A DNA stretch of 23,451 nucleotides from Promethearchaeota archaeon. Lineage in GTDB: Archaea > Asgardarchaeota > Thorarchaeia > Thorarchaeales > Thorarchaeaceae. The position numbers and the translations under genes are program-made. Below the pieces are notes generated by a model. It saw only the letters and a program-made list of their open reading frames with translations, ran no database searches and had not been told where the DNA came from. Below are positions 3,513-17,400 of this stretch, piece by piece; position 1 is the first letter of the stretch, and each line of letters starts with the position of its first letter. Location: the NCBI GenBank assembly GCA_027031765.1, contig JALVPN010000212.1, positions 1 to 23,451 of the forward strand, written 5' to 3'.

Positions 3513-6500
3513 TCAGCTTGGCATAGCAAAACGGAGCACCTCAATGATCCTCCTGACTGCATGGTCCGCAATGTCATGGTCTGCGCAGCGCGGGTTCGAA
3601 GCACATTCTGCTAGTTTCTTGCACATGTCCATAACCAGGTCGGTAGCCTTCTTCCTTATGGCACTGTACCGCTCTGCGACTAGGACTATGTGCCAGCAGA
3701 GGATGAATCTCGCCATGATGGTATATCTGTCGGGTTCCCTGGCATGCTTGAGCTCGTCACAGATATTTCGAATGATTGTCTGCGCAGTCTTTTCCAGGTG
3801 CTTTGTCATGCTCTCCGACGAGAGATAGCTGTCGATTACCCCGACTATAGCATCCAACATGGTTGCGAATTTCGGCATACCAATCCGCGACCTGACATTG
3901 AGGACTCTTGTGAGGTTTTCAGCTGCCCCGTCGATTTGCTTCGACAGTCGTGCCTCGCGGAACTGATCCGCAAGATACGCAGCGTTCAGGAGCGCTATCA
4001 CCAGCATCGGCTCAGGGCCATATCCACTGGGCAACCACTCCACCCCCTCTCTGAGGAGCTGCGACATGTACCGCTCCTTCAACCAGTCGAGGTGCGTACG
4101 GATACTCTCCGGATTCTCAAGGGCCTCCTGCACAAAGTGGCTGACATGATGCAGAATGTCCATGCGGATGTGGGGCTTGGCACTTGAGAGGGCTATCACG
4201 CCCTCCCAGACTTCGTCCAAGGGAATGAAGAACCCGTTCAGATGGAGACGCAGGAGCGACAGTCTGAACTCGACGGAGGGGGTGCTTAGTCCCGTGCCAT
4301 GTACATCGCCCGTCGCCATTCTTTCAGCATCTACGTACGTATCTACTATGTTCGCAATGATTTCGTTGATTAGTTCAACTGGGCCCCTCCTGCTAGCGGT
4401 ACGACGCTGCTGGGTCAGTTCCCTCATGAGGTCAAGTGCAAGACCATGTTGGTCTGACACAAGCATTGCGAAGGCCAGGGCACGGCTCGTTTCCCTAGCC
4501 ACACTCTTGCTACGACCCAGGGCACGGCTCGTTTCCCCAGCCACACTCTTGCTACGGCGAGCGCCAGATGCAACAAGTCCCAGCAGCCTAGACTTCAGTT
4601 CCTGCGCAAAGATTCCGGCACGTATTCTTGTTTCTGGTGTGGGTGAGGGCACAACGGCCATGAGGACTGTTCCTAGGCGGTGCAGCTCCTCCTTCGTCAT
4701 CTTATCTGTCCTCTGTGGGTCGAGACTATGGATGATGCTCGTCCCAAACGCTAACGCAAGCCTCCTGAAGCGTCCATTTCCTGTACTTGCTGTCCACCTC
4801 TCTAGCAGTCCGAGTTTTGCTCTGTCTGGTAGCTGTTGGTGAATCTGACTCTCCAGTCTCTCTTGTTCATCGGGCCCGGGCCGTTTCATGAGAAACCGGA
4901 TGATTCTCTCAGCATCATCAATATCTTCGGCCTGACTCAGCATCCGGAGAAGAAGTCCTTTCTGCTTCCACAAGGCATCCCCAATTGTTCCGTACATCTC
5001 AGTATCCGAGTGCTCGGCAAGCTTGGCTATGAGCCGGGTGCGCCTCTCCTTCACGGCCTTTTCGGTCAGGCGGATTACAACTCGTCCCACCACCCGTGAC
5101 CACAGTCTACCCGAGATACTCGGGTCTTCTATGAAGTCCACTACCTTTTCGTTGCAGGTGTCCATGACTAGTCCCGCAAGCCCGTCGACAACAGCTTCCT
5201 CAGTGTCGTGTACCTCCCCCACATTGTGGCGCTCAACTACGAACCTGACAAACCTGCGTGCCCCGTCGCACTCGGTAGTCCCACGGGGTAGCTGCCCTTT
5301 GCGCAAAGTTTCGGCAATGGCAGTGTACACTTCGCGAGAGAACTTCTTGTTCTCCGGAAGCTTGGTCACCACGTCTCGGTACCCGAAGTCTTCACCGATG
5401 CGCTGGACGACAGTTGCCCTGATGATTGCCTCGACAAGCGGTACCAGCCCGGGTCTTCGCCCCTTCTGTTGAGGTGCTCTGAGCATGTCTGCAACCCAAT
5501 CCGCAAGATGACCCAGCAGCTCGGCGTCGTCGCTACATGCTTTGACAAATGCCCCCACGTACTTGCCAGCCCGCGCCAATTCCAAGCGCTTCTCACCGGC
5601 AAGTGCGTCGGCAACTTGAATGGCGCGCGCAAAGGCATCGACACCGGCCTTCTCCTGTGCATGTCGTACAAGAACCTCCAGCACACGTTCAACCAGCTCC
5701 GGGTGCTCTCTGACGGTGTCCTCCCTCTCCAGCACCTTCGTGAGGGATTTGGGCGGTAGGTTCTCCAGTGCACGGCCAATCATGTCCAATAGAATCCTAT
5801 GGAGCTCGTTTTCCAGTCGCGTCTGCCTGGTTCTTGGTAAGGCTCCGAGGATACTGTCAATGTATTTGTGCGGACAGGCTTCCTGACCAAGTGCTCTTTC
5901 CATATTCCGAAGTACTGCCTCCACGCCCGGTAGGGCTCCAGTACTATTCAATGCCTCCGCATGTGAAAGGAGGTACTTGCAGAGTCGTAGTATCTCATCT
6001 GTGCCAACGCTCTTTCCTATCCGGACAGAAACGAACGTGTCCAACACGGCCCGGTCGAGTGCGCTGAACTCACTTGGTATGGCTTGCAGCGCCTCTTGAT
6101 ACTCCCTGACCGTTACGTGCTTCCACAAGTCGAGTAGAGTACTGAATAGGGCCTCCGTTTCATCTTTTGCCTGAAACTTCCCCCTGACACGTTGTCCATC
6201 GATGTTGAACGCATAGAATCCTTGGCCAAAAAGTGTGCTCTCTGCGCTGCGATGTGGGAATACAAGGCATGTGTGCGCATCCCGCCTACCTCGTGTGACG
6301 AGCTCGTCCACTTCGATGTCCCTGCGCAGTGACGGCGGGATGAACATGAGCGCAGTGATCATCATGAACCGCGGTGGGACTTCGTTGCGACTCACAAGCA
6401 TGACCTTGTGCCCTTCAAGGAGCGCTTCAATCAGTGGCCTGATTTCTTGCACTATATTCTTATCAAGCCGGTCGAGCGGCCGGTCTGGCTCCCCGATACT

Positions 6501-7007
6501 ACCCTCCTGAATGATGTTGCATATCTCGTAGTAGAGGTTGTCAAGTTCCCCTTCGTCTATCTCCTCCAATCCTGTTTTCTTCGGTACCTTTCTAGGACTG
6601 ATTGGCGGGCGTTCTTCCCTGAGCAGATGCGGCAGCAGGAGGTGTGGCAGTCCGTGCAACCTCTGGTAGTCCCCTGGACTGAGGACAAGACAGGCCAACA
6701 TGGAGACCAGTCGGCCAGCCGTGTCCTTACCGGCGTGTTTCACAAGGGATACAATACGTTGTTCCTGCTGCTCTCCGTAAGTCCTAGTTCTCAGCACCCC
6801 GTCCGAGTAGCACAGTGAGTCGACAACAGACTTGCCACGACTCCCAATCCTAGGATCCCCGCCCAGAGGGATTCTGTCAGCTTGGATGTTCAGGCTCTGA
6901 TACACTGCTCTGGCATATTCTACTCTGAGGTTGTTGCTATACTCGTACACGTCATACCCGACGTCGGCAGCTTTCATCCATCCGCCTACTATCCGACCCA
7001 CCCTCAT
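3513..7007 (-). CDS. Large (1164 aa) protein: N-terminal GAP1-N2/GAP1-M-like (DENN-like) module plus a long alpha-helical solenoid
   Basis: Long ORF. N-terminal GYDVYEYSNNL and AGKDTAGRLVSMLACLVL resemble GAP1-N2 (G-f/y-x-v-x-x-S-x-x-l; G-x-D-x-x-GR). LIEALLEGHKVMLVS...ITALMFIPPSLRR resembles GAP1-M/cDENN. The remainder is Leu/Glu/Arg/Ala-rich amphipathic helices with no TM segment. Start could be 7007 or 6977. Confidence 0.85.
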   Translation of the reverse strand: MRVGRIVGGWMKAADVGYDVYEYSNNLRVEYARAVYQSLNIQADRIPLGGDPRIGSRGKSVVDSLCYSDGVLRTRTYGEQQEQRIVSLVKHAGKDTAGRLVSMLACLVLSPGDYQRLHGLPHLLLPHLLREERPPISPRKVPKKTGLEEIDEGELDNLYYEICNIIQEGSIGEPDRPLDRLDKNIVQEIRPLIEALLEGHKVMLVSRNEVPPRFMMITALMFIPPSLRRDIEVDELVTRGRRDAHTCLVFPHRSAESTLFGQGFYAFNIDGQRVRGKFQAKDETEALFSTLLDLWKHVTVREYQEALQAIPSEFSALDRAVLDTFVSVRIGKSVGTDEILRLCKYLLSHAEALNSTGALPGVEAVLRNMERALGQEACPHKYIDSILGALPRTRQTRLENELHRILLDMIGRALENLPPKSLTKVLEREDTVREHPELVERVLEVLVRHAQEKAGVDAFARAIQVADALAGEKRLELARAGKYVGAFVKACSDDAELLGHLADWVADMLRAPQQKGRRPGLVPLVEAIIRATVVQRIGEDFGYRDVVTKLPENKKFSREVYTAIAETLRKGQLPRGTTECDGARRFVRFVVERHNVGEVHDTEEAVVDGLAGLVMDTCNEKVVDFIEDPSISGRLWSRVVGRVVIRLTEKAVKERRTRLIAKLAEHSDTEMYGTIGDALWKQKGLLLRMLSQAEDIDDAERIIRFLMKRPGPDEQERLESQIHQQLPDRAKLGLLERWTASTGNGRFRRLALAFGTSIIHSLDPQRTDKMTKEELHRLGTVLMAVVPSPTPETRIRAGIFAQELKSRLLGLVASGARRSKSVAGETSRALGRSKSVARETSRALAFAMLVSDQHGLALDLMRELTQQRRTASRRGPVELINEIIANIVDTYVDAERMATGDVHGTGLSTPSVEFRLSLLRLHLNGFFIPLDEVWEGVIALSSAKPHIRMDILHHVSHFVQEALENPESIRTHLDWLKERYMSQLLREGVEWLPSGYGPEPMLVIALLNAAYLADQFREARLSKQIDGAAENLTRVLNVRSRIGMPKFATMLDAIVGVIDSYLSSESMTKHLEKTAQTIIRNICDELKHAREPDRYTIMARFILCWHIVLVAERYSAIRKKATDLVMDMCKKLAECASNPRCADHDIADHAVRRIIEVLRFAMPS
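4475..4556. repeat. 42-bp in-frame tandem duplication with one mismatch, encoding RSKSVAGETSRALG / RSKSVARETSRAL
   Basis: CCAGGGCACGGCTCGTTTCCC(T/C)AGCCACACTCTTGCTACG starts at 4475 and again at 4517. Confidence 0.95.
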
Positions 7008-7068
7008 CGTCTACCAACCCGGTGTGGTTCATTGATGCTTGGGTCTCACCTCACTCCTCCATTGAGTT

Positions 7069-8181
7069 CTAGCGCCGCATCAGCTCGACAATCTTCATTA
7101 TCGGAACCAAGAGTCTGTGCGGTCTCAAGACGATGACCTCCTTTCCGTCCTCGTTCTCTTCCGTCTTGGGTTGGTCTGGTGTCCCCCATGCTGAGTAGGC
7201 GGCCACATGGGTCTCATTGTTGTGCCAACTACTGAACAGGTTCCGTATCTGCTGTGCTGACGCCTTCATATGTCTATTGAACCACTGAGCAACGTCGATG
7301 TCCACATTCCCACTCCCCTTCTTTTGAGACCCTTGAGACTTATCCTTTTGAGGCCCTTGACACTTATCCTTTTGAGACCCCTGCGACTCATCCAACCCCA
7401 ACCACTTCTCAGCATGGGAGAAGGCGACTATGAGGGGTTGGTCGAGTTGGACACGTACGCGCCGCCATCCCCTCATTTGTATTCGATGTTCTGCGACATG
7501 TTTTGCAACGATGAACAGTAGAGCGTCAGCAATCTTGTCGCGCATCTCGATCACGGACTCGGACTCCTCGCACTGTCGGATGTCCTCGCACTGTCGGATG
7601 TCGAGGAGGAGAATGTACCCGTCGTACTTCTCATTCAATATGCTCTGCAGTCCTTTCCTCTGCTCCTCCTCGATGATGCTCAAGTTCTTTTCTACCTCTT
7701 TGAGGAAGGTGTTGAAGACTTTGAGGCGTCTGGGGTGTACCTTGGTACCGGCGATTATTGATTGGGCAAGATGCAGTCTCTCAGTGCTGCTCTCGTTCTC
7801 AATGGCCTCAAGTGCCGCACGGAACACCTTCGTGTAGGTCTCGCCGGCTGTATCGACCAACTTGATACAGAACCTGACCTCATCACGAGTGCCTTCGTCC
7901 AAGACAAACCACATTGATATAGGCACGGTCTCGACCGTTGCAGCGGCCCCGGTATTACCCGCCAATAGTTCTCTCTGGACTGCCCGCAGGTGTTCTCTCG
8001 CATACATGTTCATGGGTGCAGCCTGCACCAGCCGGCCCAGTATTTGCGTTGTGCTCTCGTCCGGCTTGACTTGGTCGTGCTCCCCTTGCGTTAGGAGGTC
8101 GAGCATTGCCAGGAACACTGTCTTTCCTGCCGTTGGTGGGCCAATCAAGCATATGTTGAATGTCCTCCCTTCTGCCGCCAA
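7069..8181 (-). CDS. TRAFAC-class P-loop GTPase, DO-GTPase-like (paralog B, ~370 aa)
   Basis: G1 GPPTAGKT (8119-8142), G2-like AAATVET, G3 LVDTAGE, strand DGYILLLD, G4 position IVAFSHAE, G5-like YSAWG, C-terminal LRPHRLLVPI. TTG 8181 is preferred over the ORF-track GTG 8229 because GGGTGA lies 7 nt upstream of it and the TATA-like box sits immediately upstream of 8229. Confidence 0.85.
   Translation of the reverse strand: MAAEGRTFNICLIGPPTAGKTVFLAMLDLLTQGEHDQVKPDESTTQILGRLVQAAPMNMYAREHLRAVQRELLAGNTGAAATVETVPISMWFVLDEGTRDEVRFCIKLVDTAGETYTKVFRAALEAIENESSTERLHLAQSIIAGTKVHPRRLKVFNTFLKEVEKNLSIIEEEQRKGLQSILNEKYDGYILLLDIRQCEDIRQCEESESVIEMRDKIADALLFIVAKHVAEHRIQMRGWRRVRVQLDQPLIVAFSHAEKWLGLDESQGSQKDKCQGPQKDKSQGSQKKGSGNVDIDVAQWFNRHMKASAQQIRNLFSSWHNNETHVAAYSAWGTPDQPKTEENEDGKEVIVLRPHRLLVPIMKIVELMRR
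7321..7392. repeat. Three imperfect 24-bp tandem units encoding DESQGSQK/DKCQGPQK/DKSQGSQK
   Basis: CTTTTGAGACCCTTGAGACTTATC, CTTTTGAGGCCCTTGACACTTATC and CTTTTGAGACCCCTGCGACTCATC at 7321, 7345 and 7369. Confidence 0.9.
7565..7600. repeat. Exact 18-bp in-frame tandem duplication encoding DIRQCE-DIRQCE
   Basis: TCCTCGCACTGTCGGATG at 7565-7582 and 7583-7600. Confidence 0.95.
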
Positions 8182-8232
8182 CTGACGTTCACCCGCTACC
8201 TGATATTCCTTGTTCTGTGCTTGGTACACGGG

Positions 8233-8247
8233 CTTATACTCTTTTTG
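8233..8247 (-). promoter_or_regulatory. Archaeal BRE plus TATA-like promoter for GTPase B and the downstream large protein
   Basis: Minus strand reads CAAAAAGAGTATAAG (A-rich BRE followed by a TATA-like box), about 50 nt upstream of TTG 8181, with a GGGTGA RBS in between. Confidence 0.6.
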
Positions 8248-8421
8248 TGCATGTTTCGGCCACAGGTACTAAGTGTGGATGAGTGGGAGATGGCTGATAC
8301 CATTGGGCACCGGGCCCGATTGCAGGCACACAAAGGCACAGAGCTCTTCCAAGGAGGGCCTGACATCGCCTCTCTGTAGCCCACGTGCTACCTGGGGCTT
8401 GGACGGACAGCCCTGCTGGAC

Positions 8422-9399
8422 TCAGACCCGGATGCATGCTAGGGTCATCAAGAGTCGGTAGAGGAGCAGGAGGACTCTTTCTGGCCTTATGGTCCTCGTG
8501 TTACGTGTCGTCCTGAGTCCATAGGCCGAGTACGGCACCACGGGCCTCTGTTTCTTCTTCCACTGGCTGAAGACCTTGGCGAGCACTGAACTGGCGTCCG
8601 GGTGTTCGCTACAGAACCAGTCCCACGCCACTCTGTCCCGGTCTGTCCGGGTGTTGCTGAGCCACTCCTCCGCGTGAGAGACTGCAACAATGATGGGTGC
8701 GGTCACCTTGAGGCGTTGGGAGACCGCACTGAGTCGTGCTCTCCTACCATAGATTTCCACTGCTGCAACTAGCCTTGCCATGTTGATGGTCGCTTCGTAT
8801 ACGTAGTCGCTGCCCTTCGTCCCGTCGAGGACCAGCATGTACGCATCTTGGGGCGTTTCGAAAGGAGTACTGCCACCACGTGATGGGCCCTCCTCGGGCG
8901 GCGCAGGGTCGGTCACTAGGGGCCCAACGTGGTCGCGGAACGGTGCCAGTTTCTTCCTGTCCACTCCCTTTCCTTCTACTACCGCCTCGATGACATCTGA
9001 TACGTCCCTATTTGTATCTGCCAGGGTGTCCAGAGAGTGTACCCGCCCCTCAAACGCGAGACCGGAAATGTCAGAAAGAGAGAGCCCCATGGCCATGGAC
9101 GTGTTGCCTCTCTTCGAGTCCAGCGAGTACCACATCCGATATGTTGTCCACCCATGCGACCGGGGCACTCTACGTCGTTTCTTGTTCAGGACTATGTCCT
9201 GTACCTTTCTCAAGTTGCTACGGGCGGCAGCAGGCAAGCATGAAGTGCAGGTAAGTCTTCTTCTCAGGTCTTGGCACTCCTCGCCAACCTCGACGTCCGG
9301 ATGACCAGATGTCAGGAGCTCCCAGAGCGCAAGTAGAACGGTCTTCCCACCCCCCTTGGGACCAAGGAGCATCACCCCCGGTGTCCGTTCGTCCGACAT
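8422..9399 (-). CDS. TRAFAC-class P-loop GTPase, DO-GTPase-like (paralog A, 325 aa)
   Basis: G1 GPKGGGKT, G3 LSDISG, strand DAYMLVLD, G4 position IIVAVSHAE, G5-like YSAYG, C-terminal IRPERVL. RBS AAGAGGAGAT lies directly before ATG 9399. It aligns by eye with paralog B along its full length. Confidence 0.85.
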   Translation of the reverse strand: MSDERTPGVMLLGPKGGGKTVLLALWELLTSGHPDVEVGEECQDLRRRLTCTSCLPAAARSNLRKVQDIVLNKKRRRVPRSHGWTTYRMWYSLDSKRGNTSMAMGLSLSDISGLAFEGRVHSLDTLADTNRDVSDVIEAVVEGKGVDRKKLAPFRDHVGPLVTDPAPPEEGPSRGGSTPFETPQDAYMLVLDGTKGSDYVYEATINMARLVAAVEIYGRRARLSAVSQRLKVTAPIIVAVSHAEEWLSNTRTDRDRVAWDWFCSEHPDASSVLAKVFSQWKKKQRPVVPYSAYGLRTTRNTRTIRPERVLLLLYRLLMTLACIRV

Positions 9400-9705
9400 A
9401 TCTCCTCTTACCTACCTGTGCCTACATGACGGTGCAGCAAGGGCCCTCTCTCCTTTCAAGGTTTGTGGGTATCGAGTGTGCTGGCACCCACGTCCGGATG
9501 CTCGCCATTGTCCTGATGACAGCGACAACACCAAGATATTGCCGGGACAGGTAGCCCCTTGAGGGTTCACCGGCAGCTGACTGGAACCGTATGAGAGTTG
9601 TGTTTCTACGCGGACTATCGCAGAGGATATCGGCAGGTGCTGTGGACTGTACGCCGTCCTTGGTGCTGGAGACGAGTCGGTGACTGCCCCAAGTCCTCTG
9701 TACCG

Positions 9706-9723
9706 ACAAAATGAATAAATTAG
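9706..9723 (+). promoter_or_regulatory. AT-rich candidate BRE/TATA element in the divergent intergenic region
   Basis: CAAAATGAATAAATTTAG is the only strongly AT-rich tract between 9399 and 9753 and lies about 30 nt upstream of the 9753 ORF. Confidence 0.5.
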
Positions 9724-9752
9724 AGCATCAGTGTACAGAGCTCTGAAAAGAT

Positions 9753-12089
9753 GTGAAGGGCAGCATGTTGGGGTTGATCCGCGGGAAGCCTATGGTTCTC
9801 TTGCTGGTGGTCGGTCTATTGCTACTTGCAGGGTACCAGCCGGCGCTTTCCTTGCAGAAGTGCACTCGTGCCAGTACTGAGACCGCAGGCCCTGTCGACG
9901 GGTCTGGCGTGGAGGTCTCGGATCTCGATGCCGTCATCTCCTGCTCACCAGCACTTGCTGACCTCGATGGTGATGGTGTGACTGATATTGTCATCGGCTC
10001 CGACTCCGGAGTTGTGCGTGCATACTCTCCCATCTTCCACGGATCCCTCTGGCAATATGCGACAGATGGCCCGGTTGCATCGTCGCCATGTGTGTACGAC
10101 GTTGACAACGACACTAGACTTGAGGTGATAGTTGGCACCTGGGACGCACGAGTATGCGCCGTTGATGCAGGGAGTGGGACGGCCGAGTGGGTACATGATG
10201 CCACCTCTCAGGTGGTCGCCTCGCCCTGCATTGCAGATGTGGACGGCGACGGACTGGTCGACGTTGTGGTGGCATCGTGGGACGGTACAGTGACGGTACT
10301 GCGTGGGCAGGATGGGAGCGTAGCCCTGGAGAAATCGCTGGGGTCCTACGTCGTATCGTCACCGTCAGTCGCCGACTTCAGTGCTGATGGTCATCAGGAC
10401 ATTGTCGTGGCACTTGGCAATGGTACAGTCATTGCTCTGGACGGAGCTGATGGGCAAGAGCTGTGGCGGTACGAATGTCGTGGTACCGTGTGGTCTTCAC
10501 CAGCACTTGCTGATGTCAACAACGACACGGTTCCTGACATCTTCGTGGGGTCGCGAGACGGTCACTTCTACGCACTGGATGGGCCTACTGGCAGCCCCAT
10601 GTGGATTATCCCGACTCGCGGCGGTGTTGTTGCATCCCCTGCCCTGTGTGACATCGACGGCGACGGTCGTCTAGATGCAGTGTTCGGTACTCTCGATGGT
10701 CGCGAGTACGCTGTTGACTGCAGCACAGGCAATGTTGTCTGGTGTTTCCACGCCACCGGGCCAATATGGGCCTCTCCAGCAGTCGCGGACATTGACTCGG
10801 ATGGCAACCTCGATGTGGTCTTCCCGTCAGAGCGTGGCTGCTTCTACGTACTGGACGGACGCTTCGGCTTCCCTCTCGTCCAGGAGTCGCTTGGGGCTTC
10901 GGTTTCGAGTTCGCCTGTCCTGTCCGACATTGATGGTGACTCCAGGCTTGATGCTGTCGTTGGTACATGGGGTCGGGACGTCGTGCTCGTCAGAGGTATT
11001 ACCGCTGGCCAGTCGCGCCTCTATTGGCAGGGCCTATGTGGTCTTGACGGCTTCAGGAGGACGCGCTCCACCGCAGTCCATGACCCCGACGGCGACATGT
11101 TGTCATCGGTGTCGGAGAGTTTCTTGGGTACTGACCCTCAACGGCCAGACACCGACGGTGATGGGATGCCTGACGGATGGGAGGTCGCTAACGGTCTGGA
11201 CCCGTGCGTACCAGATGCAGGCGGTGACCGCGATGGCGATGGCCTATTGAATATTGAAGAGTTCACACTCGGTACGTACGCCTGCGTAGTGGACTCTGAC
11301 CTTGATGGTCTCGACGACCGTTCAGAGCTGGCACGCGGCACCTCACCACGACTCAACGACTCGGATGCAGACGGGCTGAGCGACGGTGAGGAGATTGGAC
11401 TCGGCCTAAATCCGCTGGCAGCCGACTCGGATGGCGATGCCCTCGACGACTACTGGGAAGTGGTCACCGGTTGCTCTCCGACAGTGCCAGATGCCTCCGA
11501 GGACCCAGATGGTGACGGCCTGGACAACGGTGGTGAGTACCTGCATGGCACTCTGCCAAATGTATCCGATACCGACGGTGATGCTCTGGATGACGGTACA
11601 GAGGTCGAGTTGGGTCTTGACCCGTTGAGTCCCGACAGCGATGGCGATGGTATGCCTGACGGGTGGGAACGCCTGATGTCCCTTGACCCACTCGTCCCTG
11701 ATGCTGCGGACGATAGGGACAACGACACTCTGACGAACATTGAGGAGTACCTTCTTGGTACCAGCCCCGTGAGTTGCGACACGGACCATGACGGCTGTCC
11801 TGATGGCTGGGAGGTATACTACTCGTTCAATCCACTTGTGAACGACAGTTTCATCGACGCTGACCAGGACGGGCTATCGAACCTCCGTGAGTTCGTGCTG
11901 GGTCTTGACCCCACCAACCCCGACACTGATGGCGACCACGTGATAGATGGCGGCGACATGTTTCCGCTCGTACAAGACCAGCTGGTAGTAGGCTACAGCT
12001 TGACAGCACTGGTACTGATGGTTGCGGTACTTGTCGCAGTGCGCCTACTTCCAGTAGTCCGCCGCCTCTATATACGGTGGAAATACTAG
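9753..12089 (+). CDS. Cell-surface protein: signal peptide, 8-blade FG-GAP/PQQ-like beta-propeller, 13 thrombospondin type-3-like Ca-binding repeats, C-terminal TM anchor
   Basis: Eight ~46-aa repeats of type xxSSPxxADxDGDGxxDxVxGxxDGxxYAxDGxxGxxxW, then 13 DxDxDG(L/M)xD/NxxE units, a TM helix (LTALVLMVAVLVAV) and a basic tail RRLYIRWKY. Start could be 9753, 9765 or 9792. Confidence 0.9.
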   Translation: MKGSMLGLIRGKPMVLLLVVGLLLLAGYQPALSLQKCTRASTETAGPVDGSGVEVSDLDAVISCSPALADLDGDGVTDIVIGSDSGVVRAYSPIFHGSLWQYATDGPVASSPCVYDVDNDTRLEVIVGTWDARVCAVDAGSGTAEWVHDATSQVVASPCIADVDGDGLVDVVVASWDGTVTVLRGQDGSVALEKSLGSYVVSSPSVADFSADGHQDIVVALGNGTVIALDGADGQELWRYECRGTVWSSPALADVNNDTVPDIFVGSRDGHFYALDGPTGSPMWIIPTRGGVVASPALCDIDGDGRLDAVFGTLDGREYAVDCSTGNVVWCFHATGPIWASPAVADIDSDGNLDVVFPSERGCFYVLDGRFGFPLVQESLGASVSSSPVLSDIDGDSRLDAVVGTWGRDVVLVRGITAGQSRLYWQGLCGLDGFRRTRSTAVHDPDGDMLSSVSESFLGTDPQRPDTDGDGMPDGWEVANGLDPCVPDAGGDRDGDGLLNIEEFTLGTYACVVDSDLDGLDDRSELARGTSPRLNDSDADGLSDGEEIGLGLNPLAADSDGDALDDYWEVVTGCSPTVPDASEDPDGDGLDNGGEYLHGTLPNVSDTDGDALDDGTEVELGLDPLSPDSDGDGMPDGWERLMSLDPLVPDAADDRDNDTLTNIEEYLLGTSPVSCDTDHDGCPDGWEVYYSFNPLVNDSFIDADQDGLSNLREFVLGLDPTNPDTDGDHVIDGGDMFPLVQDQLVVGYSLTALVLMVAVLVAVRLLPVVRRLYIRWKY

Positions 12090-12145
12090 GGCTCCATCCA
12101 TCTGTAGGTGTCACACTGCTATTGATTCGTGCCTACCCCATGTGC

Positions 12146-12166
12146 GCGCCGCGCCCATTGCGGCGC
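12146..12166. terminator. GC hairpin between convergent genes; possible terminator
   Basis: GCGCCGC-7 nt-GCGGCGC perfect 7-bp stem in the 100-nt gap; no oligo-T tract. Confidence 0.25.
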
Positions 12167-12191
12167 ACCCACCAGTGCGTCAGATACCCTC

Positions 12192-14021
12192 CTATGCACC
12201 ATACATCTTGTCAAGGATGGCATCAATCTCATCGACTTTCGCAGGTATTCGGAACCGTTCTGCCACTGCCCTGGCCTGGAGCAGGACTGCTAGGAGTCTT
12301 TCAAAACGTTTCCAGTCATCACCTGACATTGTGCTTGTTTCTACGCTCGCCAGCCAGTCTCTTGCAGTCTGGACAATCCACTCTACCACCAGTTCTGCAT
12401 CACTCCTGTCCCGGACTTCTGAGACCCGTACGTCCAGGAACTCTCCATCCCGTAGGGCCTTCGCCAACTGCACCCTTCTCTCTGCCTGCTCTATGAGTTG
12501 ACATGCCTGTTCCGTCACCTCAGCCATCTCAGGCTGTACTGTCCTCGGTGGTGAGCAGTCCACACCAAGCCGTGTTAGCAGCTTCTGGATCCTTGCTACC
12601 GCATCCATGACCCTCTGACAGTATGTGTCTAGAGTCATATACCCACCACCCGTCCCGTCCAGTGCACGACGGAGGTCGACGATGCTGACCTGCAGCTCCT
12701 TAGCAGTTTCCCTTCTTTCCTCCAGAATCCCTTCAATATTGGCAAACTCGGCCCTGGTCTCATCGAAGACTCTCTTGAGCCTATCGACAAGCTCCTCTTG
12801 TCCAAGTGCCGCCGCTTGCGCCATTGATGAGGTGAGTCCAACTAGAGCGCGTTTCTCTTCAACATGGAGATTGTCAATGAACCTAGCAATGGTCTTGGCA
12901 TCAACCATGCCTACGCACTGAGTGCGGAGTCGTGCGACCGTTTCCTTTGCCATCGTCATCGCTTGGTCTGCTTCAGTCATGTTTCTATGCACCGCTAGAT
13001 GTCTGCGCACATCTCGGGACAGGCGCTCTACTTCGTCAGCGAGTCTCTGGACCTCTTCCTTTCCCTCTTCGATTCCGTACTCTTTCGCTGCCCGATGTGC
13101 CTTCTTGAGCAGCGCTCTAAACTCCGGCATGCTTTTCTGGATCTCTCTGTCTAGGGCCTCTAGTCCCATGATACTACTGACTAGCTGGAAGCGCACTTGG
13201 AGTTGCTGCAACCGGATCCGTACCGGCCGGACGAAGTCGCTTTCGAACGCTTCCAGTACTCGCCTTCTTAGCACCGCCTGTTGCTCCCGGGCCACTTGGA
13301 TGCTCGCTCTGGCCTCCTCCAGTTCTTGGGACGACGCTGCATCCGCTCCGGCTGCTTCACGCGTTCTCTCTAGCGCGAGTTCTGCTCTCTCTCTCAGTCT
13401 GCGAATCTCATTCAGTCGGCTCAGGAGGGTGGTCAGACCTTGCCGTCCCCGTTCTCTTTCGACCCGCCGCACGGCCTTTTCCAGCTCCACGACTTCCTTC
13501 TTCAGCTCAGACTGGCGCTCCTTCAAATCCACCATCTGTAGGAGTTCCTCGCGCGTCCGCCTGTGTAGTGTGACCGCTCGATTCGCCTTCGTTTCCAACA
13601 TTGCTAGGTGCGCACGCTTCGCCTCTTGCAGGGCCTGCGTGTCGAGTGCTATCGTACGTTCCATCTCCTGCCTGACGGTCCTGCGGAGCTCCTCGAACCG
13701 CTTATTGGCCTGAGAAACTGTTTCTTTGAGCTGCTTCACAATGCTCTCGGCCAAGTACAGGTACCGCTCTGTCGTTGTTATCGCGAGGTGCCGTTCCAAG
13801 TCGGCCTTTATGTCTGCATACCCTACCTCGGGCAGCTGTTTCAGCGTTCCCTCGTAGCGTGTGAGATCCCTGAGCGCAGCAGTTAGCACCGAGACTGCCC
13901 CATCATAGTCCCGACATCCCCGCAACTCCTCGGCCCTCCTCTGCTGTTCTTGGGTTCTCCGTAGGACTTGAAGCGCCTTCTCGGTTCTACTGTCATCTTG
14001 CTGCTCGTGATGCACTGTCAA
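12192..14021 (-). CDS. Long soluble coiled-coil / all-helical protein of unknown function (~609 aa)
   Basis: E/R/A/L/K/Q-rich heptad-like sequence throughout. The first ~100 aa of the ORF-track version (start 14327) look non-coding in composition. TTG 14021 is preceded by GAAGGGTG, so it is the preferred start, but this is uncertain. Confidence 0.8.
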   Translation of the reverse strand: MTVHHEQQDDSRTEKALQVLRRTQEQQRRAEELRGCRDYDGAVSVLTAALRDLTRYEGTLKQLPEVGYADIKADLERHLAITTTERYLYLAESIVKQLKETVSQANKRFEELRRTVRQEMERTIALDTQALQEAKRAHLAMLETKANRAVTLHRRTREELLQMVDLKERQSELKKEVVELEKAVRRVERERGRQGLTTLLSRLNEIRRLRERAELALERTREAAGADAASSQELEEARASIQVAREQQAVLRRRVLEAFESDFVRPVRIRLQQLQVRFQLVSSIMGLEALDREIQKSMPEFRALLKKAHRAAKEYGIEEGKEEVQRLADEVERLSRDVRRHLAVHRNMTEADQAMTMAKETVARLRTQCVGMVDAKTIARFIDNLHVEEKRALVGLTSSMAQAAALGQEELVDRLKRVFDETRAEFANIEGILEERRETAKELQVSIVDLRRALDGTGGGYMTLDTYCQRVMDAVARIQKLLTRLGVDCSPPRTVQPEMAEVTEQACQLIEQAERRVQLAKALRDGEFLDVRVSEVRDRSDAELVVEWIVQTARDWLASVETSTMSGDDWKRFERLLAVLLQARAVAERFRIPAKVDEIDAILDKMYGA

Positions 14022-14453
14022 GAGTCTTGGCACCCTTCCGTCTAGTCTGCTACCCCCGCGCACTACTCTGCAGGCGTCCGTGTTTCCTTGGAACAAACAC
14101 AGAAAAAACTGTTGGCGTCTAGCTGGCAGTACCAGGAGCTGCGTACTGTGTTCCAGCGTGTTTGAAGCTGAATACCCGTGGCCACCGGTAGGCCGCTCAG
14201 TCAGTGCACGGGCGGACTTGTCCCCCGAACTAGTCATACCGTGCTCGCTCCGGTCTGGCCCGATACGCACCCTTCTGGCAGGGAACATGAATCCTCTGCC
14301 TGTTGCGTCAGGCCATAGGAATGTCACGCACCGCGTCGTTGATGACCCGTTGCGCCCGGCTCTAACACCATACCTGCCGCTACGCTGTGGAAATGTTTTT
14401 CACTCCCTTTACGGTGCACTTCGCCCGCGAAAATGGGAACAGATGGTGACCGG

Positions 14454-17400
14454 ATGCACGCAAGTATCAAGTCCTCCGCTCTGATTCTCATGGTTATCAT
14501 GTTGACTGCCGGTGCCCTCCCCCTTCATCCTCTCGTGAGGCCAAGGCACCCGCAGGCCTACAGCCCAGTTATCAGTAGCAGCCCCCCTGAGCAAGACTTG
14601 CAGGAAGTGCTTGAGCACCTCCGTTCTGGGGGGCAGTCACTCCCGTTCGGTGGGTTCATCCGCAACCTCGGACAACTTGACGATGAGCGTGTGGAATACT
14701 ATGTACCCGGCCGGGTCATGGACGTAGGCTTTGGCCCGTCGATGGTACTGTACGCGTTCCACCGCCCGGACGGCGGTCGTACAGTGTTCCGCATGACGTT
14801 CCCGGGGTCTGACACAGTGCACCCCACTGGACGGGTCAGGAACCAGCATGTCGTCAACTATTTCCATGGCGACCTCGTACTGACCAACGTACCCACCTAC
14901 AACGAGGTGTGGTTCGAGGGCCTCTATCCTGGCATCGACCTCAGGTTCATGATGACCGGGGGCGGTCTCAAGTACGAGGCCATTGCGCGTCCCCATTCAG
15001 ACCCCTCGGTGTTCCGCATCCAGCTGTCGGGCGATGTCGACGTCGAAGTGTCGGACGTGGGCGTGTCGGTGAGCCTGCCTGGAGTCTCGGGCGGGCCTGT
15101 CTTCACCGACAGCGGTCTTGACGTGTTCCAGACAGGCGGTGCCAGTGTCCCTGCTGAGTACACCCTTATAGACCCGCTCACACACACCTACGGGTTTGCT
15201 TTGGGGGAGTACGACCCCTCGAAGACGCTGATCATTGACCCGTGGTGCGTATCTCATGCCACCCTTCTCGGTGGCAGCGGTGGTGAGTGGGCATATGATA
15301 TTGATGTCGACTCGAGCGGGCACGTGTATGTCACGGGGTACTCCGGTTCTGTAGACTTCGACGTCACGCAGGACGCATATCAGGCATCCCATGGTGGTGC
15401 CCATGACATCTTTGTGACAGAGTTGAACCAGACAATGACTGGACTGGTCTACAGTACGTACATCGGTGGCTCGGGTGATGATGAGGGGCGGTCGCTGTTC
15501 GTGGACAGCTCCGGCAACGTATACATCGGTGGCTATACTGCCAGCAGTGACTTTCCACTGGTGAATGCCTACGACCCGAGTCTGGACGTGCGGGACGCAG
15601 TCGTTGTGAAGCTCGACTCAAGTGGACAGCTAGTGTTCTCCACTTACTTCGGTGGCAGTGGGGAAGAGGTCATCACTGGCATTGTACCCTCAGGCACCAA
15701 CTACATCTACGTTGTTGGGTACACGACCTCCGACGACCTCAACGTCACCAGTGCGTACCAGGACACCTTTGGGGGTGGCTCCTACGACGCGTTTGCTGCC
15801 GAGTTCGACACGAGTTCGGCCAGTCTTGTCTACAGCACGTATCTCGGGGGTTCGGATGATGACTTGGCCTATGATGCAGTCCTCATCGGGCAGGATGTTG
15901 TGCTCGTCGGACATACGTGGAGCTCCGACTACCCAGCAGCGAACGGCTACGACACCTCCATCAATGGTCAGACTGACATCTTCGTCACCCGGCTGAACTC
16001 CACCGGCAACGGCATAGTGTTCAGTACTTTTCTCGGCGGCGGCTCCTACGACTACGGTCAGAGCATCGCACTCGACTCGAGTAACAACATCTATGTTGCT
16101 GGTCGGTCAATGTCGTCGAACTTCCCCACAGTGTCCGCCTATCAGGACTCCCTTGCTGGAGAATACGATGTCGTGGTGAGCGAGCTCTCTGCAAACGGTC
16201 AGACCCTCTTGGCAAGCACTTATCTCGGTGGCACCGACACTGAGTGGTCGGGTGTCGTCACAGTCGACCCCACTGGACACGTGTGCGTTGCAGCCAAGAC
16301 CGCATCCACTGACTACCCCCTCCTCAATGCCAGCGACAGTTCCCGAACTGGCGCGACCGACGCGGTGCTCACCCTTTTCGACTCTGGACTCAGCACTCTC
16401 CGGTTCTCCACCTACTTCGGTGGGAGCCACACGGAAGAAACGCTTGGGATTGACACTGACAGTTCTGGGGCCGTCTACTTCTGCGGGACATCCACCTCCC
16501 TCAGTTTTCCAGCACACCGCGCATATCAGCCGGGTCTCAGCGGTACGAGCGATGCGTACATTGTGAAGTACGATGTTGATGTAACGCCGCCGACCATTGG
16601 GCTGGTCGGTACGTCGAACAACACGGTCCACAGGTCAGGCACTCTGATCCGGCTCGACCCTGATGATGACATGTCGGGCGTGCAGTCGGTGACGTACAGC
16701 TGGGACGGTGGTGCCAATAACTCTCTGAGCGCACCGTACAAGGTCGCACTCCCGTCCGGCGAGACCACCCACGTCTTGCGTGTGTATGTGAGCGACCGGG
16801 TCGGCTTCGAGTCCAGCGCCGTCTATTCCTTCGTGACAGACGACACAGCCCCTGTCATAGACTTGGTAACGCCGACCAATCACACAAGTGCCTGCTCGGG
16901 CACCCTTGTTGATGTGGACATCACGGAGCCCCACATCGGCTCGGTCACATACACGTGGGGTGACAGCAGTCCTCAGGCCTGGAGTGCGCCCTATCACACG
17001 GTAATCCCCCACGAGAACGGGTGGGTCACTCTGACTGTGAACGCAACGGACCAGGCCGGTAACAATGCCGTCGCTACCTACGTGTTCAAGGCCTCTGCAT
17101 CTAGGTACCTGCACTACTCCACGTACTTCGGCGGGACAGATGTGGACATGGCTGAGGACCTCGCCGTTTCAACCAATGGCGTCATGTACATTGTCGGTAG
17201 CACTGCCGGCTCTCTCCCGACCTTCAATGCATATGACTCCAGTTTCAACGGCCTGCCCACGGACGCGTTCCTGGCCGCATTTGCAGGAAACGGCTCCCTG
17301 CTCTTCTCGACCTACATTGGTGGTGATGACGAGGACCATGCGTACTCCGTTGCCCTCGACAGCGACGGTACAATTGTGGTGGCCGGACTCACTGCCAGCT

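Follow-up and report, generated by a model that had tools for sequence, protein, structure and literature searches.

A divergent GAP1-like protein with a predicted DENN-like fold, encoded beside two putative DO-type GTPases in an Asgard archaeon

A three-gene cluster on a Thorarchaeota contig

The stretch of DNA analysed here (the window) is a complete 23.5-kb contig (JALVPN010000212.1; 23,451 nucleotides) from a 2.95-Mb genome bin. Its minus strand carries a three-gene cluster (window positions 3513-9399) encoding a large protein, P0001, and two smaller GTPase-like proteins, P0002 and P0003. We consider it probable, taking the following three parts together, that this cluster represents a very divergent prokaryotic 'GTPase-centric' system of the DO-GTPase/GAP1 kind, that the N-terminal head of P0001 is the GTPase partner, and that this head adopts a DENN-like fold. 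The initial annotation of this DNA had placed it in an Asgard archaeon, and this assignment holds because a piece of RpoB from the bin is 88-93% identical to Candidatus Thorarchaeota metagenome-assembled genomes. The three genes are as follows.

Window 3513-7007, minus strand: open reading frame (ORF) of P0001, 1164 amino acids by translation; M11, at nucleotide 6977, is the probable real start.
Window 7069-8229, minus strand: P0002, 386 amino acids, a putative divergent DO-GTPase directly upstream of P0001; motifs G1 and G3 are intact and G4 reads SHAE.
Window 8422-9399, minus strand: P0003, 325 amino acids, a paralogue of P0002; it has SHAE at G4 and lacks the Glu that follows the glycine of G3.

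M11 is the likely true start of P0001 because both the database gene call and the family alignment described below begin at this residue, and a purine-rich stretch lies upstream of its ATG. Only 61 nucleotides separate the end of P0002 from the P0001 ORF on the same strand. P0002 and P0003 share 24% identity (E 7e-20), and the earlier statement that the giant protein is encoded next to its own GTPases is borne out, with two paralogous genes upstream in the same orientation.

The initial annotation drew attention to three stretches near the P0001 N-terminus, all of which are present: GYDVYEYSNNL (residues 17-27), IVSLVKHAGKDTAGRLVSMLACLVLSPGDYQRL (residues 85-117) and IRPLIEALLEGHKVMLVSRNEVPPRFMMITALMFIPPSL (residues 189-227). 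Together these span about nucleotides 6327-6959 of the minus strand. The layout of the protein, combining sequence family and predicted structure, is given below.

Window 6618-6977, minus strand: GAP1-N2-like domain, residues 11-130; predicted to be longin-like (uDENN-like), with the order b1-b2-a1-b3-b4-b5-a2-a3.
Window 6711-6734, minus strand: motif AGKDTAGR, residues 92-99, which conforms to the family signature G-x-D-x-x-G-R; R99, in the b4-b5 hairpin loop of the model, is a candidate arginine finger.
Window 6183-6554, minus strand: GAP1-M-like domain, residues 152-275; a predicted alpha/beta lobe resembling cDENN.
Window 6321-6344, minus strand: motif FIPPSLRR, residues 222-229; its P224 is the one position that is invariant throughout the family alignment.
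Window 6009-6164, minus strand: dDENN-like helices after the alpha/beta lobe, residues 282-333; these align with the final part of the DENND1A/1B module, and confidence is low for the last 30 residues.
Window 3513-6008, minus strand: tail, residues 334-1164; no recognisable family or atlas match.

Searches with the tail (residues 330-1164) gave no Pfam match and no atlas feature match. In-frame tandem duplications occur both in this tail (42 bp twice, doubling a 14-residue unit, at window 4475-4556) and in P0002 (24 bp three times and 18 bp twice, at 7321-7393 and 7565-7602), and these resemble products of recent slippage within surface loops. The DNA of the locus is present in one hydrothermal-vent metagenome run, which is probably the source sample; no RNA record was listed.

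The P0001 head carries a divergent GAP1 module

The head had been described as GAP1-N2/M-like, and several comparisons bear this out. An alignment of seven Asgard GAP1 heads matched P0001 in hhalign with a probability of 84% (E 7.7e-6) over residues 86-252. The same alignment was used to gather GAP1 heads from Asgard genomes, which were found in 26 of the 400 genomes searched, and a hidden Markov model (HMM) was built from 27 such heads. This HMM matched P0001 with 35.5 bits over residues 75-253. Across the genome's 25,836 ORFs from six-frame translation, P0001 (E 8e-8) ranked second after the canonical GAP1 protein encoded on contig C118, and the next unrelated ORF appeared at E 3.6. Language-model features from ESM likewise placed the head with GAP1-N2/GAP1-M clusters, with a score of 0.95.

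The 28 sequences of the resulting alignment (A2), among which 11 match PF20013 and 7 match PF20014, were also inspected for individual positions. In a MAFFT alignment the motifs GY..S, G-x-D-x-x-G-R and L-x-P...R fall in register between P0001 and the family. The signature columns are conserved as G in 24, D in 22, G in 20 and R in 23 of 27 relatives. After the start codon, P0001 keeps 10 of the 14 strongly conserved family positions (G17, Y18, S24, P52, G93, D95, G98, R99, P121 and P224). The predicted shape agrees as well: the AlphaFold (AF2) model of the head, described below, matched ESM-Atlas models of bacterial GAP1-N2, GAP1-M and GAP1-N1 clusters with template-modelling (TM) scores of 0.56-0.69 over 251-291 residues. 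Since the ESM-Atlas models were made by a different predictor, this match ties the AF2 model to the predicted shape of the GAP1 family. Given the profile matches, the in-register motifs and the retained conserved positions, the P0001 head is, by its sequence, a real but very divergent GAP1-N2 plus GAP1-M module.

Gene context agrees with this assignment. GAP1 proteins were defined as lying downstream of, or fused to, a DO-GTPase, from which a direct interaction was inferred (Kaur, Burroughs, Iyer, Aravind 2020, eLife 9:e52696, PMC7159879). P0001 shows the corresponding arrangement, as its gene directly follows the genes for DO-type GTPases, and it carries the variable C-terminal extension seen in the N2 type (PF20013, PF20014). 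In about ten of the Asgard loci fetched, the GAP1 head likewise has a DO-GTPase-like ORF beside it in the same orientation.

The same genome contains a second, canonical operon on contig C118 (L003 in G000; 4289-12908, minus strand), whose stop and start codons overlap. It encodes a DO-GTPase, P0007 (PF19975, E 5.5e-12), a GAP1 protein of 1552 amino acids, P0006, in which PF20013 matches residues 3-108 and PF20014 residues 170-235, and an FG-GAP beta-propeller protein of 980 amino acids.

Several observations weigh against a GAP1 assignment, or at least against a typical member. P0001 falls below every Pfam GAP1 threshold, with no match to GAP1-N2, GAP1-M or GAP1-C at E 1 for either the whole protein or residues 1-320. 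A histidine conserved in 22 of the 27 relatives is Ala in P0001, and the Pro that follows the family Arg is Leu. Neither GAP1-C (PF20052) nor an FNIII domain was matched in P0001 or the neighbouring genes, where very divergent versions are possible, and none of the effector domains or membrane segments typical of described GAP1-N2 systems was recognised at the locus. The P0001 locus further differs from the described N2 type in having a pair of paralogous, full-length GTPases that read SHAE at G4, and in its archaeal (Thorarchaeota) host.

The extent of the divergence is also evident from searches that returned nothing of use. A six-frame genome search with PF20013 recovered the C118 contig and missed the P0001 ORF, and BLAST of P0001 against the canonical C118 protein yielded no match. 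PADLOC and NCBIfam had no entry for P0001, P0002 or P0003. A word-index search of 5.8 billion clusters with the P0001 head found only the head itself, the same search with the head of P0006 found a single relative of P0006, and that with the seven-sequence head alignment found none. An exhaustive phmmer search with P0001 against 1.84 billion cluster representatives gave no credible relative other than itself. One hit from phmmer, a 7671-residue adhesin-like protein whose 22 repeats together gave E 2e-4, was judged spurious, and a weak match in a related genome (G004) was rejected as the antisense strand of a genuine gene. P0001 thus illustrates how far a GAP1 protein can drift: it is undetected by Pfam and by very large sequence searches, yet retains both the predicted fold and the signature residues. 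We regard the cluster as an extreme variant of the GAP1/DO-GTPase system.

P0002 and P0003 are putative DO-type GTPases with an altered G4 motif

Pfam models for DO-GTPases match P0002 and P0003 weakly (E 0.016 and 0.1), and no Ras/Rab-family model matches either protein. A connection is provided by intermediates in other Asgard genomes. In two such genomes (G124/G083) the gene immediately before a GAP1 head encodes a GTPase that aligns with the whole of P0002 (E 4e-10 and 1.5e-7), and this intermediate GTPase in turn matches the canonical DO-GTPase P0007 (E 4e-6). A multiple alignment places motifs G1, G3 and G5 in all of these proteins. By way of the intermediates and this common G1-G3-G5 layout, P0002 and P0003 are assigned from sequence as divergent DO-type GTPases.

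The closest relatives of P0002 are found at L041 (G124 contig C107, 33-6247) and L042 (G083 contig C178, 403-4469). The gene order there is a 178-residue membrane protein, the GTPase and an 830-residue GAP1-head protein, with a 710-residue P-loop protein in G124. Of the contexts described so far, this arrangement is perhaps the one closest to the system in the window.

The G4 motif forms a series, from [TS]KxD in canonical DO-GTPases through SKSE in the closest relatives to SHAE in P0002 and P0003 (window 7408-7419 and 8668-8679, minus strand), in which SKSE looks like an intermediate state. Because G4 is altered to SHAE in both proteins, their nucleotide specificity may have changed, and the partners of P0001 would be GTPases with a changed base-recognition motif that possibly use a different nucleotide. 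The Glu after the G3 glycine is present in P0002 and in most aligned relatives, and is missing in P0003. The replacement of the G4 consensus [NT]KxD in both proteins, which leaves the nucleotide used uncertain, counts against the DO-GTPase/GAP1 reading of the cluster. A co-folding prediction of the head with P0002, which was run without controls, scored 0.02, below the mark, and weighs neither way on binding.

The head is predicted to fold as a longin-DENN module

The check proposed in the initial annotation was an AlphaFold model of the N-terminus followed by structure comparison. A model made from the single sequence was unusable, with a predicted local distance difference test score (pLDDT) of 34. 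With a 28-row alignment, the head was modelled with a pLDDT of 71.2 and a predicted TM-score (pTM) of 0.74. The first lobe of this model (P0001 numbering) contains b1 at 12-13, b2 at 18-19, a1 at 29-39, b3 at 71-77, b4 at 83-94 and b5 at 100-109, followed by a2 and a3, and in the model this order of secondary structure is that of a longin domain. A poorly modelled linker leads to an alpha/beta lobe with five strands (201-275) and to helices at 282-333. The model thus contains the tripartite DENN layout of longin lobe, alpha/beta DENN lobe and helices.

Foldseek comparison with the PDB ranked DENND1B first (E 9.5e-5, probability 1.0), followed by DENND1A, folliculin, SMCR8/C9orf72 and TagF; the top 11 matches were all DENN-module proteins or TagF. 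The check therefore returned both the longin-like and the DENN-like similarity. The model was also compared with 48,161 representative chains by an aligner independent of Foldseek, with the following matches (chain, protein, score, aligned length, head residues).

6ekk_A, DENND1A: score 9.6, length 245 (root-mean-square deviation 5.5), residues 4-318.
8p0v_M, DENND10: score 7.8, length 241, residues 5-305.
9t0n_A, TagF: score 6.8, length 201, residues 7-262.
8yqg_B, Lokiarchaeal longin domain: score 5.9, length 121, residues 3-150.
6nzd_H, folliculin C-terminal DENN domain: score 5.9, length 136, residues 169-311.

The predicted fold of the head is thus a longin domain followed by an alpha/beta lobe of the DENN type and then helices, in the layout of eukaryotic DENN modules. 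The likeness has clear limits. Global TM-scores of the Foldseek matches in the PDB, including DENND1, are about 0.3, which we attribute to a different setting of the lobes relative to each other. In addition to this difference in lobe placement, the head shares only 8-9% identity with DENND1A/1B (PDB 6ekk, 3tw8) and DENND10 (8p0v), has no profile similarity to them, and has partner GTPases that are DO-type rather than Rab. TagF (PDB 9t0n, 2qnu, 6iz8) has the fold predicted for the head, but its type VI secretion system (T6SS) context is not present at the P0001 locus.

Another explanation would be that the DENN-like look is generic or an artefact of modelling, with the head being a TagF-like binding or scaffold module that has no role in the nucleotide cycle of a GTPase. 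The model derives from 28 sequences only, has a pLDDT of 71 with low-confidence linkers, and reaches a global TM-score of about 0.3 to DENND1, while the altered G4 motifs and the missing G3 Glu of P0003 suggest unusual or inactive NTPases. However, the top-ranked matches are coherent and cover both lobes, bacterial GAP1 proteins have the same shape in the ESM-Atlas models, which were predicted independently, and the pairing of GAP1 heads with DO-type GTPase-like ORFs recurs among the Asgard loci. We find this explanation quite unlikely. TagF is a T6SS regulator without a known action on a GTPase, which speaks against deducing GTPase control from the fold.

R99 as a candidate arginine finger

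DENN-fold modules act either as guanine nucleotide exchange factors (GEFs), as in the DENND1-Rab35 pair, or, through an arginine finger in the longin domain, as GTPase-activating proteins (GAPs), as in folliculin and SMCR8. In eukaryotes, DENN modules regulate GTPases of the Rab, Arf and Rag groups that act in membrane traffic and in nutrient signalling. In the head model, R99 is located in the longin-like domain, where the b4-b5 loop ends. The finger residues SMCR8 R147 and FLCN R164 are located in the longin b4-b5 loop (bioRxiv 10.1101/2020.04.16.045708), so that the conserved R99 may correspond to them. Unlike folliculin and SMCR8 (PDB 6nzd, 3v42, 7mge), the head has GY rather than a GP motif before b2, and GAPs of the folliculin/SMCR8 type act as longin heterodimers, which differs from the head as interpreted here.

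We propose that the head (about residues 11-333) would bind one or both of the adjacent GTPases and set the nucleotide state of P0002/P0003, and that the 830-residue tail would couple this state to something else. Because the model places R99 in the loop where FLCN and SMCR8 carry their arginine finger, activation of hydrolysis through this candidate finger is ranked slightly above nucleotide exchange. The converse proposal is that the head is a GEF of the DENND1 type for P0002 and P0003. The best structural matches are indeed the GEF modules of DENND1A/1B in complex with Rab35, but DENN-fold modules comprise GAP families as well as GEF families, the conserved arginine of the family is placed by the model at a position typical of GAPs, and nothing in the analysis bears on exchange itself. 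A DENND1-type GEF is, in our assessment, unlikely.

A widespread predicted system has GAP1 as its core partner; we found no experimental test of this system in the literature, and the searchable papers contained no published fold or mechanism for GAP1. With the DENN-like predicted fold and the conserved arginine at the finger position, the designation 'GTPase-associated protein' becomes a specific hypothesis that mutation experiments can address.

Relationship to eukaryotic DENN modules

The initial annotation called the N-terminus uDENN/cDENN-like on the basis of a sequence pattern. This description stands at the level of the predicted fold, as given by the DENND1B match, and is not supported at the level of sequence. 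Pfam models for DENN, uDENN and folliculin match none of the 28 heads, and the head profile matches none of the solved structures by sequence. Comparison of GAP1 heads with Asgard folliculin/DENN-like proteins by hhalign aligned only 42-44 columns with a probability of 4-11%; these columns correspond to the helix-strand-helix-LxP stretch, which is the pattern noted earlier. For the longin parts of the GAP1 heads and of the Asgard folliculin-like family, the hhalign probability is 0.1%. All of these results count against sequence homology, and the DENN-like pattern by itself is not beyond chance. The case for DENN therefore rests on the predicted fold, and homology is unproven because sequence profiles do not connect the head to DENN proteins. 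Overall, the earlier reading is partly supported: the head is GAP1-like, and its DENN-like fold holds as a prediction.

A second proposal of the initial annotation, an evolutionary link from prokaryotic GAP1 modules to eukaryotic DENN GEFs, is not established by these data. A Pfam DENN search over the 400 Asgard genomes yielded one sub-threshold protein, which is folliculin-like, has a GP motif and gives weak matches to PF02141 and PF11704. The Asgard family of folliculin-like longin-DENN proteins is present in 176 of these genomes, and this far commoner family is a more obvious relative of eukaryotic DENN modules than GAP1 heads are; its profile comparison with the head is not significant. 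With the query used, no member was found in any of the 85 genomes from this organism's own family.

Members of the folliculin-like family (L043/L044 on G307 contig C222; loci L045-L073) have a GP motif and an RGG.R motif. Many are 470-500 residues long, and some have a P-loop-like GK[ST] motif after the longin part.

DENN-domain proteins have been reported from Asgard archaea, and some of their genes share an operon with those for a Rab-like GTPase and a Roadblock protein (bioRxiv 10.1101/2020.10.19.343400). Longin proteins of Asgard archaea that have both a GP motif and an arginine finger have also been published already (PMC12290439). The paper that defined GAP1 mentions neither DENN nor longin (PMC7159879). 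In the literature we found no paper that ties GAP1 or TagF to DENN, or DENN to prokaryotic conflict systems, and the only paper combining TagF and longin was unrelated.

A stronger interpretation would make the head a true homologue of eukaryotic DENN modules by common descent, uniting GAP1 modules with DENN GEFs and GAPs in one superfamily. The two-domain order is the same, both lobes are matched independently of their orientation, and the best, non-significant profile alignments to Asgard folliculin-like proteins always fall on the structurally equivalent helix-strand-helix-LxP stretch. In the model, the conserved arginine falls in the longin loop that carries the finger in FLCN and SMCR8, and GAP1 and DENN modules are both paired with GTPases. 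However, neither sequence nor profile similarity is significant, the partners are GTPases of the DO type (Kaur et al. 2020, PMC7159879), with Ras/Rab models in Pfam matching neither P0002 nor P0003, and the heads are patchy among Asgard genomes compared with the folliculin-like family. Common descent is a real possibility, although we lean against it.

A broader proposal joins this descent to function, such that GAP1 heads and eukaryotic longin-DENN modules form one ancient superfamily, R99 is a working arginine finger, GAP1 proteins are true GAPs of the longin type, and the cluster is a prokaryotic model of DENN-type control. This combination is speculative and we rather doubt it. The finding reported here is no demonstration that eukaryotic DENN proteins derive from GAP1 systems.

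Neighbouring genes in the window

A protein of 778 amino acids is encoded at window 9753-12089 on the plus strand, transcribed divergently from P0003 and 354 nucleotides upstream of it. It contains beta-propeller repeats of the FG-GAP/PQQ type, a match to a bacterial TSP3 repeat (PF18884) and a C-terminal hydrophobic anchor. An FG-GAP propeller protein is also encoded at the canonical C118 locus, which is perhaps a coincidence.

Further along, a 711-residue protein at window 12192-14327 (minus strand) has many charged residues and is probably a coiled coil without a family match. Window 14433-19505 (plus strand) encodes a 1690-residue surface protein with SBBP beta-propeller repeats, DUF7948 and Ig-like domains, together with a Thr-rich stalk and a C-terminal anchor.

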